Source of the DNA: an uncultured virus (IMG/VR IMGVR_UViG_3300027659_000012)
Lineage: Duplodnaviria > Heunggongvirae > Uroviricota > Caudoviricetes
Reading direction: 5' to 3' (one strand)
Virus record (IMG/VR): IMGVR_UViG_3300027659_000012
Length of the DNA stretch: 64,000 nucleotides
This document shows, in pieces, positions 19,225-57,716 of the stretch. Numbering within the stretch: position 1 is the first letter of the stretch; every line of letters begins with the position of its first letter. The notes beneath the pieces were generated by a model. The model made no database searches, was not told where the DNA came from, and worked only from the letters and a program-made list of their open reading frames with translations. The position numbers and the translations under genes are program-made.

Positions 19225-19557
19225 ATGACAAATTACGATTCAAGAGACCCTTTAGTTGAAGCTGCTCGCCAGTTTCTTTTGGCAGAAGAACAAATGATTA
19301 AGGTTTACGTGAATTTTGAATTCGCGATGTATGACGATGATGCTAAAACTGAAAGAGCAGCAAAAAAGACTCAGGTTTTAATCAAAAAAATCGCCGCAGA
19401 TCACGGATTTACAGTAGTTGATACAGATGAAAATCTAGGAGGTGCTGAAATTGAGGCAACATTTTCTGGTCCAAAAAACAAAATCATAAGTTGGTTACGT
19501 TCTCGCAGCGGAGATAAAAAATCGTCTGATGATCAACTGCTTAAAAAATACAGCTAA
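19225..19557 (+). CDS. Late protein, possibly an internal head protein
   Basis: Late promoter; N-terminal segment ending LLAEE resembles prohead-protease-cleaved leaders. Confidence 0.6.
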   Translation: MTNYDSRDPLVEAARQFLLAEEQMIKVYVNFEFAMYDDDAKTERAAKKTQVLIKKIAADHGFTVVDTDENLGGAEIEATFSGPKNKIISWLRSRSGDKKSSDDQLLKKYS

Positions 19558-19566
19558 AGAAGGGGA

Positions 19567-19719
19567 TTTATCTGTCAGACCTTTAATTGTGCATGCCCCT
19601 CACGCACGCACGACATCTTCGCTGAATCACGGAAGGGCCGTTGTGTAGTAGCAATGCTACCTCAGACGAATCATCAGCTAGGTCTTCACAGTCGCGTGTA
19701 GATATTCTCGACAGATAAA
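19567..19719 (-). ncRNA. Candidate structured ncRNA C
   Basis: 10-bp closing stem TTTATCTGTC/GACAGATAAA and inner AGACCT/AGGTCT stem. Confidence 0.5.
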
Positions 19720-19723
19720 AGGA

Positions 19724-20338
19724 TAGAATGACTGAGATGTCCAGCCTAGGACTCTCAAATAGCGGTCTTCATGAAAGGCATGCCCTCAGTCATTCAGTTT
19801 GTCCATAGGGTGTGCATCCCATCGCCTTAAGCAGGACTGGCTCTACCTAGTACTATAACCATTGCCATAGGTGGCTTCTTTGCTATGCATTCCTATTCGC
19901 CAAGGAAGCAAAGAACGGTCAGACGAAAGTGAACCAACTGCTTGACATGACGCACACTACTTTATCAGGTATAGCCGCCATCAGTCAAGCAATTGGAGTT
20001 TTGTCCATGGCATCATTCGATGCTTACGTTCACGCAGGACTGGCACTAGCTAATGGTTAGCCCACATTAGTCAGGGTCCATAGAGTATTCACTCTTCGAT
20101 TCGAGCAGGACTGGCTCTAGCTACGGACATCCTCATAGCGGGATTTCTACAATGTGTGGTTATTGACCCACACGGAATTTCAAGCCTGTACGCACTCCGA
20201 ATGCGCCTAACTCACCGATTTCCATTGCAAAAATAATCTCTACCGTTAAACCGACTTTCACTGGTCACGAATTCTTCGCAAATTAAATTTGCTTCACTGG
20301 TAGAGTCGCCGATGCATCGTAATCGAATACATTAGCAA
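19724..20338 (-). ncRNA. Candidate large structured ncRNA(s) with a three-fold repeated module
   Basis: No ORF; long hairpins; plus-strand GTCCAT...GCAGGACTGGCWCTA at 19801-19845, 20003-20048 and 20076-20119. Confidence 0.55.
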
Positions 20339-20341
20339 AAT

Positions 20342-20410
20342 TGGTGGACACCGGGGAATCGAACCCCGTCCGCGATGCCGAAACATCACGTCGAACTCCT
20401 ATGAGTGCCC
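20342..20410 (-). ncRNA. Minimal tmRNA-like RNA (tRNA-like domain only)
   Basis: GGGCACT-CATAGGAGTTCGAC-GTGATG-TTTCGG-CATCGC-GGAC-GGGGTTCGATTCCCC-GGTGTCC-ACCA; G3-U70, no D stem, no anticodon loop. Confidence 0.75.
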
Positions 20411-20419
20411 ATATAAAAT

Positions 20420-20494
20420 TGGCGGGCAGGCAGGAATCTAACCTACGATCTTTAGCCTATGGGGCTAACGCTTTATACACTAAGCTACTGCTCC
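20420..20494 (-). tRNA. Atypical or pseudo tRNA with CAU anticodon
   Basis: Cloverleaf, but C33 in loop CCCATAG, T-loop TTAGATT and an imperfect acceptor stem. Confidence 0.55.
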
Positions 20495-20501
20495 GATGAA
20501 A

Positions 20502-20587
20502 TGGTGGGTAGAGATGGATTCGAACCAACGTAAGCTTACGCTAGCAGATTTACAGTCTGCCCCCTTTAGCCGCTCGGGCATCTACCC
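20502..20587 (-). tRNA. tRNA-Tyr(GUA)
   Basis: Long variable arm, loop CTGTAAA, ACCA. Confidence 0.93.
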
Positions 20588-20595
20588 ACATGAAT

Positions 20596-20671
20596 TGGTT
20601 GCGGAAGTTGGGACTCGAACCCACGTAACATGCTTATGAGACACGTATCTGAACCACTCGATTATTCCGCG
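20596..20671 (-). tRNA. tRNA-Met(CAU) with initiator-like acceptor stem
   Basis: Loop CTCATAA; C1-A72 mismatch; ACCA. Confidence 0.75.
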
Positions 20672-20783
20672 TTTGAAAATTTAGAGAGCTTTAACAGGCA
20701 TACATACCATGCAAATCCGAGGACGTGAACTTAATCACCGCATGTGCATCGCCACTCTCCGTGAGTCCGGTTGCAAATTGAAT

Positions 20784-22195: not shown

Positions 22196-22837
22196 TCACT
22201 CGTCCCCATCAACGGCTTGCGCGCCCTTCTTCTTGGCTTCTGCGGCAAGCTTTTTCTTTACCACGACGTCACGCTTCTTCAATCGGGCTATAACCTCATC
22301 CGAATCCATCCAGAGGTCCTTGTTATTGAGCAGTGCCTGAATCTCTGCCTTAGTCAAGAAATCCGAATAGACATCAGTCAGCAACTTCTCTGACCATTTA
22401 CGTTCATGAACCAGATTGTCGTACATCTCTCCGCCTTTGCCAAAGGAACCGCCCGAATAGTTGTGGAACATGAACATCGAGTGAGGCGCGATCTGAAACT
22501 CATCAGCAGCCAAGAAGAGCATGGTTGCCGCACTCATGCAGATACCTTCTACGCTGGCAATGATGTGAGCCTCGGTCTCGGCCAGAGCCTGGAGAAACTG
22601 GATCGTCGTAAAGAGGTTTCCACCCGGGGAATTGATGTGAATCTTAATCGCATCCGAATTACGAGTATTGCGAATCTCCTGAAACCAATCAGTGTATTCG
22701 CTGGCCTCGCCAATTTCATCCGAGACATAGTACTCGTAGAACTTTCCGTATTCGTTTGAATAGGACTTGCTGTCTGCGGCTTTAAGGAGTTCGGCGAGTC
22801 CGTTAGAGCTTTTACGATTTTTTTTGTTAGAATGCAT
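22196..22837 (-). CDS. ClpP-like protease
   Basis: IHINSPGG, CMSAATML, FMFHN, DLWM motifs. Confidence 0.85.
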   Translation of the reverse strand: MHSNKKNRKSSNGLAELLKAADSKSYSNEYGKFYEYYVSDEIGEASEYTDWFQEIRNTRNSDAIKIHINSPGGNLFTTIQFLQALAETEAHIIASVEGICMSAATMLFLAADEFQIAPHSMFMFHNYSGGSFGKGGEMYDNLVHERKWSEKLLTDVYSDFLTKAEIQALLNNKDLWMDSDEVIARLKKRDVVVKKKLAAEAKKKGAQAVDGDE

Positions 22838-23567
22838 GGCCGAATAGTTTTTGTTTGTTATAGAATTGAATAGCTTCATCGAGTCCCTTGGTCCATTTAT
22901 CACGGTGTTGTTGAAAGATTATAGGATTTGGATCATTATCGACGACCATGATGGTGATCAGATTGACGATAGGAATGCCTGTACGCTCCTCAAACATTAT
23001 TGTATAAGCTGCTTCTTGCATGAAGTAGTTCTCGATGTGTTGCTCGCTCTTGATGCGTGAACTGGTCTTGAAGTCAATCACACTCAGGCGACCATCAAAT
23101 TCAGCGATCAGGTCTACGCGTCCGGCAATGCCGAGATGATCACTATAGAGTGGGCATTCCTGAAGGACGACTTTACCGATTCGCTCATCGAGAACCTTTT
23201 GCACCGTCTTGAAGCTTTGAATAACGTGAGGCATCTCATCCTCGGCAAAGATCTCTTCTTCGTTGTTCAGATACTTCTCGGCCAGCAAATGCAATGCGGT
23301 GCCACGAGAACATGCATGACGAGTGATTCGATTCGCCTCCTCTTCGCCTACTCGCTTGCGCCATTCAATGATTGCCTCTTTACCTCTGGCTCCTAGCACT
23401 GTGGTGATCGAGGGATATTTCTTACCAGTCGGAGTAAGATAGGTCCTACCTTTTGCCGAGCTTTCGTCGGAGAGGTCTTCATAACCCAGAGAAACTGGCT
23501 CATGAATGAACGTTTTGTTGCGAATGAATGTAGGCTTAGATGCAGATATAATCATAATGAGTCCCAA
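22827..23567 (-). CDS. PD-(D/E)xK exonuclease (Cas4 / exonuclease A-like)
   Basis: YPSITTVL, RGTALH, AGRVDLIAEFDG..IDFKTS, YFMQ..AY. Confidence 0.85.
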   Translation of the reverse strand: MGLIMIISASKPTFIRNKTFIHEPVSLGYEDLSDESSAKGRTYLTPTGKKYPSITTVLGARGKEAIIEWRKRVGEEEANRITRHACSRGTALHLLAEKYLNNEEEIFAEDEMPHVIQSFKTVQKVLDERIGKVVLQECPLYSDHLGIAGRVDLIAEFDGRLSVIDFKTSSRIKSEQHIENYFMQEAAYTIMFEERTGIPIVNLITIMVVDNDPNPIIFQQHRDKWTKGLDEAIQFYNKQKLFGHAF

Positions 23568-57290: not shown

Positions 57291-57716
57291 TTAGTCATTA
57301 ATTGGTTTAAGAACCTCTTTGATGTTCTTGGCACCGTATTGATTGGCCGAATGAATATACGTCCGCATCGGAGGCATACCCGCTTCTTGCCACTTGCGAA
57401 GAATGAATTCCGCACATGATTTGCCAGTCTTCTCACGAAGGTTGCCATACTCGATGACACCGCTAGTGGGTTGAGTCACATCATGATAATGACGAATATG
57501 CTCGAAGTGAAGATCATGATCAAAGGACACGGTGTCAGGAAGCCCATTCTTGTTGATGTAACGAACGAACGAGTCGTAGTTGCGAACGATTTGCCACTGG
57601 TTATTCGCGACACCTGATGCATCGATCAGGTTGATATCCCTATCACTAAGGTATGCGCCATTAGGATAACGCACGTCATCCAAGAATAGGTTATAAGGCT
57701 CGTATGTATTTTCCAT
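57291..57716 (-). CDS. Cyclic-phosphate-processing receiver-like domain protein
   Basis: LFLDDVR.P, VSFDHDL, KTG, IHSAN..GAKNI. Confidence 0.7.
   Translation of the reverse strand: MENTYEPYNLFLDDVRYPNGAYLSDRDINLIDASGVANNQWQIVRNYDSFVRYINKNGLPDTVSFDHDLHFEHIRHYHDVTQPTSGVIEYGNLREKTGKSCAEFILRKWQEAGMPPMRTYIHSANQYGAKNIKEVLKPIND

Follow-up and report, generated by a model that had tools for sequence, protein, structure and literature searches.

The tRNA arrays of phages are commonly regarded as a means of codon supply or of anti-defence. The array of phage T4 holds 'species 1' and 'species 2' (rnaC and rnaD), the stable RNAs of the T4 tRNA cluster. GOLLD and ROOL are large, elaborate non-coding RNAs of phages and prophages that often lie by tRNA genes, and both form RNA-only complexes (PMC12286853). 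A CDS-less tmRNA is known from phage DS6A and two-residue tmRNA tags are on record (PMC11915505). Here we analyzed a stretch of 64,000 nucleotides (the window) from an uncultured virus, in which a sequence-only reading had noticed a large, ornate, structured RNA region with a repeated module, a view that our analysis supports. Compared by description, the window RNA resembles species 1 and species 2 in belonging to the tRNA cluster of a T4-type phage, in sharing the strand of the tRNAs and in being presumably matured from a tRNA precursor, but it is much larger (~500-780 nt), modular and pseudoknot-rich, and contains a repeated unit. As in CsrB/RsmZ, a short repeated motif is displayed on hairpins; however, the GGA of the pseudoknot loop covaries away (GGGG, GCGG), so that there is no CsrA-type consensus. 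Like bacterial Y RNA/YrlA, the RNA would fuse a tRNA-like domain to a binding module, but no YrlA match was found in the region and no Ro60 (TROVE) gene in the records of 4/4 relatives. SmpB and CCA-adding enzyme genes were likewise not found in these four records, one of which is complete, and none of the three genes was detected among the 71 window ORFs (Pfam).

The Rfam 15 search returned no family in the region beyond tRNAs and a mini-tmRNA, either at gathering score or at E up to 10, and only tRNAs and tmRNA domains in the loci of 9 relatives. The sequence-only reading could not assign the region to GOLLD or ROOL, and these two models indeed gave no match at gathering score in the window, at E<=10 in 19300-20500 or at E<=1 in the 9 relatives' loci. 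The tmRNA model (RF00023) had no match in 19567-20336 at E up to 10, its only match being a tRNA-like domain (TLD) at 20342-20410.

The window phage is a freshwater T4-like phage. It encodes gp32, gp59, UvsX and a DnaB-type helicase, its gp43-type polymerase is 51% identical to that of a Kyanoviridae phage, and the DNA runs containing 0.41-0.96 of its sampled words bear freshwater, lake, estuary or sediment labels. The 10 window tRNAs share one strand and include a minus-strand run of Met (20670-20600), Tyr (20587-20502) and Met (20494-20421), as called by ARAGORN. This run is followed by a CDS-less mini-tmRNA of 69 nt (20342-20410, minus strand), consisting of the tRNA-like domain only and bearing a CCA end, which lies directly upstream of the region, as had been described. 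It scores 28.6 bits with the Rfam tmRNA model, against a gathering score of 47, matching model positions 1-374 with 306 of them deleted, and ARAGORN makes no tmRNA call at 20342-20410. Its third acceptor pair is G-U and its short P2 is closed by a UUCG loop. Some relatives encode this mini-tmRNA form (42.1 and 39.1 bits), others a full tmRNA (120.5 and 76.9 bits) and others again both; in one relative the full tmRNA carries the tag GKNNVVDSGLALAA.

From 20341 to ~19560, no ORF longer than 43 aa is present on either strand, in agreement with the earlier description of the region as ORF-free, and ~19560-20341 folds better than 20/20 shuffles (z -2.74). Promoter and terminator scans gave nothing above shuffles. 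Read 5' to 3' on the minus strand, the mini-tmRNA is followed by M1, block A, pseudoknot 1, unit 1, pseudoknot 2 and unit 2, and then by hp2, hpX, pseudoknot 3, unit 3, hp3, a spacer and M155.

Within the 64-kb window there are exactly three copies of the 11-mer GCCAGTCCTGC (20115-20105, 20044-20034 and 19841-19831), the 10 other matches all carrying 2 mismatches, and a repeat search found one three-copy family, with spacings of 203 and 71. These copies head three minus-strand units of ~45 nt, unit 1 (20076-20119), unit 2 (20003-20048) and unit 3 (19801-19845), thereby confirming the coordinates first proposed. R1, a covariance model built from the units, scored them at 59.8, 50.8 and 63 bits, respectively (E 6e-16 to 3e-12), and nothing else in the window reached E 0.01. 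Each unit had been proposed to be closed by GTCC/GGAC, and this helix, P1, holds as GUCC/GGAC; it becomes GCCC/GGGC, a compensatory change, in the divergent relative L208, the one sequence from which P1 covariation comes. The inner hairpin, P2, had been said to vary while keeping its pairing. This is true both among the three copies (AGAGU/ACUCU in unit 1, GCAUC/GAUGC in unit 2, GGG/CCC in unit 3) and among relatives, where the series also includes AGAGG/CCUCU, and where the unit 2 copy of L222 reads GCAUU/GAUGC, with a G-U pair. Unit 1, which is represented in alignments A2 and A7, has a long 5' junction strand (UGC-N-URA...), and an unpaired S-N-U-R-A motif follows CCUG in 14/15 distinct units. 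Small ORFs starting at the AUG of AUGGAC were considered and dropped, since the change of GAC to GGC is accompanied by one in its pairing partner.

The true repeat is larger than earlier described: it is a ~80-nt module composed of an H-type pseudoknot and the unit that follows. In pseudoknot 1 (20120-20144, minus strand), stem S1 is AUCC/GGAU and S2 is GCUAUG/CGUAGC; in alignment A7, 3/5 pairs of S1 and 3/6 of S2 are changed on both sides, and S1 reads AACC/GGUU in L222. Pseudoknot 2 (20049-20075, minus strand; S1 CC(C)/GGG, S2 ACUAAUG/CAUUAG) was read from sequence and has the same architecture as pseudoknots 1 and 3; its copies are invariant and hence allow no covariation test of their own. 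Pseudoknot 3 (19853-19875, minus strand) pairs GCC/GGC in S1 and CUAU/AUAG in S2, and its S1 is ACC/GGU in L074, with both sides changed. A distinct long hairpin had been claimed after each unit. This stands for 19996-19934 and 19795-19726, whereas the ACTAATG/CATTAG 'hairpin' after unit 1 is stem 2 of the H-type pseudoknot preceding unit 2. The pseudoknots, block A, the mosaic of cassettes with AAUUUU spacers and the presence of a single unit in most relatives had escaped the sequence-only reading.

The pairing was evaluated on 9 distinct pseudoknot-plus-unit sequences, which are related and of low diversity, the units falling into about six lineages. Standard pairs filled 89.3% of the cells, compared with 26.5-44.9% when the 3' partners were slid, and both sides were changed in 8/20 pairs. 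The covariation score was reached by 0/500 shuffles. Stem S1, for instance, occurs as AUCC/GGAU, CUCC/GGAG, CCCC/GGGG and CGUU/AGCG. Folded alone, the three pseudoknot-plus-unit modules were no more stable than shuffles (z -0.49, -1.89 and +0.57); since they are not exceptionally stable by themselves, their support is comparative rather than thermodynamic. Compensatory changes back the pseudoknot, the two helices of the unit and block A alike.

Block A (20148-20229, minus strand) is predicted to form a three-way junction resembling a tRNA or a tmRNA tRNA-like domain, with an acceptor-like stem of 6-7 bp, a T-arm-like hairpin stacked on this stem, and a long arm with a variable tip. RNAalifold on 11 sequences gave 27 pairs, of which 6 are compensated. 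Invariant G-U pairs (e.g. 11/11 at three positions) fit no strand other than the minus strand. Neither ARAGORN nor Rfam called a tRNA at 20148-20229; the tRNA model (RF00005) was not matched and no cloverleaf was called, the tip of the long arm varying in both length and sequence. Compared with the end of a tmRNA tRNA-like domain, block A is closed locally and is followed by more RNA instead of CCA.

The other cassettes also lie on the minus strand. M1 (20238-20336), located between AAUUUU and AUUAUUUUU spacers, comprises two hairpin domains (folding z -2.35) and is restricted to the closest relatives; it is near-invariant between the window and L074, and is present in L097 too. The hairpin hp2 (19934-19996), an inverted repeat of 13 nt forming a 13-bp stem with a conserved tip, folds at z -5.26; in L074 it is shorter, with compensated stem changes, and its homologues in L060, L018, L083 and L053 make it common to a second, larger RNA type, that of L060. 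hpX (19876-19915), with the conserved loop UGGCGAAUA, has a G-C pair replaced by A-U, a compensatory change, when the window and L074 are compared, and has homologues in L079 and L222, but its folding is weak (z -1.55, 15/200 shuffles as good). hp3 (19726-19795), an inverted repeat of 11 nt with an 11-bp stem and a highly conserved interior (z -2.23), is found in L074, L079 and L222 and is missing from an RNA-library variant that skips 19721-19799. M155 (19567-19717), which lies beyond the coordinates first considered, is a separate, multi-branched RNA of 151 nt closed by UAUCUGUC/GACAGAUA, for which RNAalifold on 9 sequences gave 45 pairs, 10 of them compensated. M155 is kept in most relatives, has no Rfam match and lies under contigs from one of the RNA libraries (X16). 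An RNase P RNA was also considered, on the basis of GUGAAAGUCGG in M1 and of a partly complementary segment of hp3, but the idea was dropped, as these two elements are not found together in relatives and no RNase P model matched.

Relatives were searched with a pattern consisting of GCCAGTCCTGC, 15-35 nt and ATGGAC, which retrieved 91 viral contig stretches. True members account for 15/91 (R1 48-72 bits), with one locus identical to the window, and the other 76, which fell short of the E 1e-8 limit, were taken as chance matches. A stricter pattern applied to metagenomes gave 13 true members out of 20 matches, and the 9 of these 13 that were scored reached 52-72 bits. Among 185,579 species-representative bacterial and archaeal genomes, 8 pattern matches and no member were found, the matches scoring 16-27 bits against 52-72 for members scored alongside. 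Blastn of 19300-20700 against 50,697 records of cultured phages matched the tRNA-Tyr only (27 records), and the nearest record, G001, a 26-kb fragment, does not include the region. In the part of the supplements of a viral structured-RNA catalogue (PMC10690425) that was searched, six contig numbers were absent, and the family may still be listed there.

The relatives are uncultured phages with one to three units per record. Most combine a single unit with block A and one or two pseudoknots. Their cassettes always lie within tRNA arrays, on the tRNA strand, and form a mosaic in which the order is shuffled and AAUUUU-like spacers stand between them. All three units are retained in L074, a 140-kb record rated as complete, which matches the region at 82% identity. 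L222 likewise contains three units, but in a different order; block A occurs alone in L094, whereas in L060 a unit is found without block A. Four relatives (L029, L076, L074 and L222) have a further H-type pseudoknot (AAGCC..GAAGG..GGCUU..CCUUC) placed between block A and pseudoknot 1, where it corresponds to a 35-nt insert relative to window positions 20143-20146 that the window lacks; in L222 it becomes GGAUG/CAUCC, with two compensated pairs. The second large RNA type (L060:1080-1760, L202:1965-2448 and L053) begins with GCGGUCAUUGAGGGG, extends over several hundred nt, and contains hp2, a tRNA-like element and, at its end, its own pseudoknot and unit.

Four RNA libraries, one from each of 4 studies, yielded contigs that match parts of the region with at least 85% likeness; DNA may be present in such libraries, so this cover does not prove transcription, and contigs cannot give RNA ends. 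In library X17, a 329-nt contig with a depth of ~180 spans 19939-20194, runs unbroken over unit 1, pseudoknot 2, unit 2 and the hairpin behind it, and includes the 35-nt extra pseudoknot seen in L074. In the same library the bins of the tRNA-Tyr (20484-20606) have a depth of 2-14, and 20197-20483 is without cover, which is not evidence of absence. The depth of the contig above that of the neighbouring tRNA suggests an accumulating product. Library X16 covers M155 and 19965-20194, X19 covers 19725-19946, across unit 3 and both its flanks, and a contig of X20 joins 19720 to 19800, corresponding to the variant without hp3. The depth-180 contig of X17 ends in an Illumina adapter inside the variable hairpin of block A, at ~20195-20210; this junction, a hint from a single contig, could mark either a fixed 5' end of the RNA or a point where reverse transcription stopped.

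Taken together, our favoured yet tentative reading, to which we give somewhat less than even chances, is that the region encodes a stable non-coding RNA of several domains, belonging to a family not described before, which is matured from a tRNA precursor and carries repeated docking sites for a putative factor. The minus strand would be transcribed jointly with the tRNAs and the mini-tmRNA, and the tRNA-processing machinery could excise the RNA at the U-rich AAUUUU-type spacers, with block A and the flanking tRNAs acting as punctuation. The mature RNA would consist of block A followed by the three ~80-nt modules. In each of them the unpaired invariant motifs UAG-N-S-CCA and UG-S-N-URA would be presented on a fixed P1/P2 scaffold, and this repeated, identical display would most likely make the RNA a multivalent docking platform, a sponge or decoy, for one putative trans-acting factor. 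From the neighbourhood, this factor is plausibly related to tRNA, to the ribosome or to trans-translation. The docking reading is drawn from invariant and mostly unpaired motifs on a covarying scaffold, together with their repetition, the tolerance to shuffling and the tRNA-precursor setting. A multivalent protein-binding RNA had been among the earlier proposals, and a multivalent binding role is the most plausible reading for the window; however, multivalency does not characterize the family as a whole, since most relatives carry just one unit.

The cassettes could instead be cis-acting punctuation or stability elements only, serving as RNase P/Z/E landmarks and exonuclease blocks for a long tRNA precursor without any role in trans. 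The setting fits this idea well, since every cassette stands between U-rich spacers and tRNAs or tRNA-like stems, block A mimics an acceptor/T-arm minihelix, some relatives' cassettes end in ACC(A), and the order of cassettes is freely shuffled. Yet the unpaired motifs, including the 11-mer, are invariant where the flanks are ~80% identical, a constancy that spacers would not need, and the depth in X17 suggests a product that accumulates. On balance we consider purely cis-acting elements unlikely, while giving them appreciable weight.

An architectural RNA of the GOLLD/ROOL kind, self-assembling and using the modules as building blocks instead of docking sites, is rather improbable. With a ~780-nt noncoding block containing many helices and pseudoknots, variable peripheral hairpins around conserved cores, and a phage tRNA neighbourhood, the region has the look of such RNAs, for which the RNA-only complexes cited above (PMC12286853) provide a precedent. 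Besides the lack of an Rfam match to GOLLD or ROOL, what sets the window RNA apart is that its parts are separable cassettes reshuffled among relatives. Such separation and reordering, with block A alone in L094 and a unit without block A in L060, is hard to square with one fold.

Phage tRNA arrays are shaped by tRNA-targeting defences, and phages can expand type III antitoxin repeats. The modules might accordingly be an anti-defence decoy that mimics a host RNA (a type III antitoxin repeat, a CRISPR repeat or a targeted tRNA) and soaks up an effector. They are repeated and pseudoknot-forming, as are the 35-45-nt units of ToxI-like antitoxins, they lie in a phage tRNA array, and three copies are present in the window lineage compared with one in most relatives. 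Unlike ToxI-like repeats, the window units are not head-to-tail (0 tandem arrays; unit spacings of 71 and 203) and are diverged, with other domains between them, and no ToxN-family gene was found among the 71 window ORFs (Pfam). Their P2 sequences vary from copy to copy, as those of repeats taken over from a host do not, and none of the 8 pattern matches (16-27 bits) in the 185,579 species genomes is a true copy. A decoy of this type therefore appears highly doubtful.

A comparably low probability is given to a tmRNA-like messenger or ribosome decoy, in which block A, the pseudoknots and one-codon Ala/Gly-stop frames would engage stalled ribosomes or SmpB, and which might work jointly with the adjacent CDS-less mini-tmRNA. 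The window RNA shares with tmRNA and the DS6A-type mini-tmRNA a tRNA-like domain without anticodon arm, strings of H-type pseudoknots and, possibly, a codon-plus-stop-like motif behind a pseudoknot. After CCU, GCN or GGA followed by UAA or UGA is present in 14/15 distinct units, with a free third codon position and alternating UAA/UGA stops. A pseudoknot, which is present and covaries, lies ~13 nt upstream of this motif. In tmRNA, pseudoknot 1 lies upstream of the resume codon at a similar spacing. Block A has the topology of the neighbouring mini-tmRNA, relatives encode full tmRNAs and/or mini-tmRNAs, and both two-residue tags and CDS-less tmRNAs have been recorded (PMC11915505). Against this, block A has no CCA end and cannot be charged, and its alanine-identity position (G3:U70) is G-U in only 6/11 sequences, the others being A-U (3) and G-C (2). 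None of the units is linked to a 3' end that could be charged, unit 1 of the window has CGA where others have a stop, and units occur in phages both with and without full tmRNA. The tmRNA model does not match the RNA, and a comparison with the relatives' full tmRNAs showed no sequence similarity, giving only chance matches of 9-17 nt. The 'frame' is one codon long and a structural reading fits equally well: URA may sit in a small U-turn loop, a possible mini-hairpin P1a around the N-U-R-A-N loop having a G-C closing pair in 9/9 sequences and a second pair in 4/9. Combining a non-chargeable block A with triplicated, pseudoknot-guided 'Ala/Gly-stop' frames that capture SmpB or stalled ribosomes with the mini-tmRNA would make a new trans-translation or ribosome-directed device, which we also regard as highly improbable; if true, it would block host rescue or free ribosomes without tagging.

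Self-cleaving or processing modules that release the intervening hairpins, the other earlier proposal, would suit small conserved three-helix units with invariant junction nucleotides repeated along one transcript, but are very hard to credit, as no Rfam ribozyme (hammerhead, twister, pistol, hatchet, HDV-like and others) matched at E up to 10, the contigs are continuous across units 1 and 2 (X17 at ~180 depth, X16) and unit 3 (X19), and one supposed cargo hairpin is a pseudoknot stem.

Under the docking reading or otherwise, the tRNA array of this freshwater T4-like phage clade also carries elaborate, conserved and apparently abundant non-coding RNAs, none of them matched in Rfam. The compact pseudoknot-plus-hairpin module with its invariant unpaired motifs offers a handle for pull-downs and structure work, and the relatives provide a natural copy-number series of one to three modules. 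The tmRNA, mini-tmRNA and tRNA-like mimics nearby hint at a link to translation or to RNA processing. Should a partner be identified, it would reveal a new mechanism of phage interference; otherwise, the RNA would still be a new large class for structural study.

Several further elements accompany these loci. About 2 kb upstream of the tRNA/mini-tmRNA array is a ClpP-like protease gene (22196-22903, minus strand; Pfam CLP_protease, E 1.8e-10), which has 293 relatives in viral contigs. An R1 scan of the best 80 of these 293 loci scored only the window's own contig and one known relative, so either the family is narrow or it lies farther from the ClpP-like gene in relatives. The ORF at 57291-57716 (minus strand) encodes a cREC_REC 'cyclic-phosphate processing receiver' domain (E 4e-16), a family linked to RNA-end processing systems. 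Four relatives (L074:1233-1329 on the minus strand, L109, L079 and L076) contain an unusually long tRNA-like gene, also odd in having two T-arm-like segments besides its acceptor stem AGAAGAG/CUCUUCU, which ARAGORN calls a 97-nt tRNA-Ser(tga) in L074 and Rfam a tRNA of ~40 bits over 109-112 nt. Finally, a 3' domain follows the unit in L076 (1548-1640), L109 and L202 (1488-1566), in which an 8-bp acceptor-like stem, GGCUAGAG/CUCUAGCC, is followed by ACC and encloses an inner T-arm-like hairpin, giving another tRNA-like mimic.
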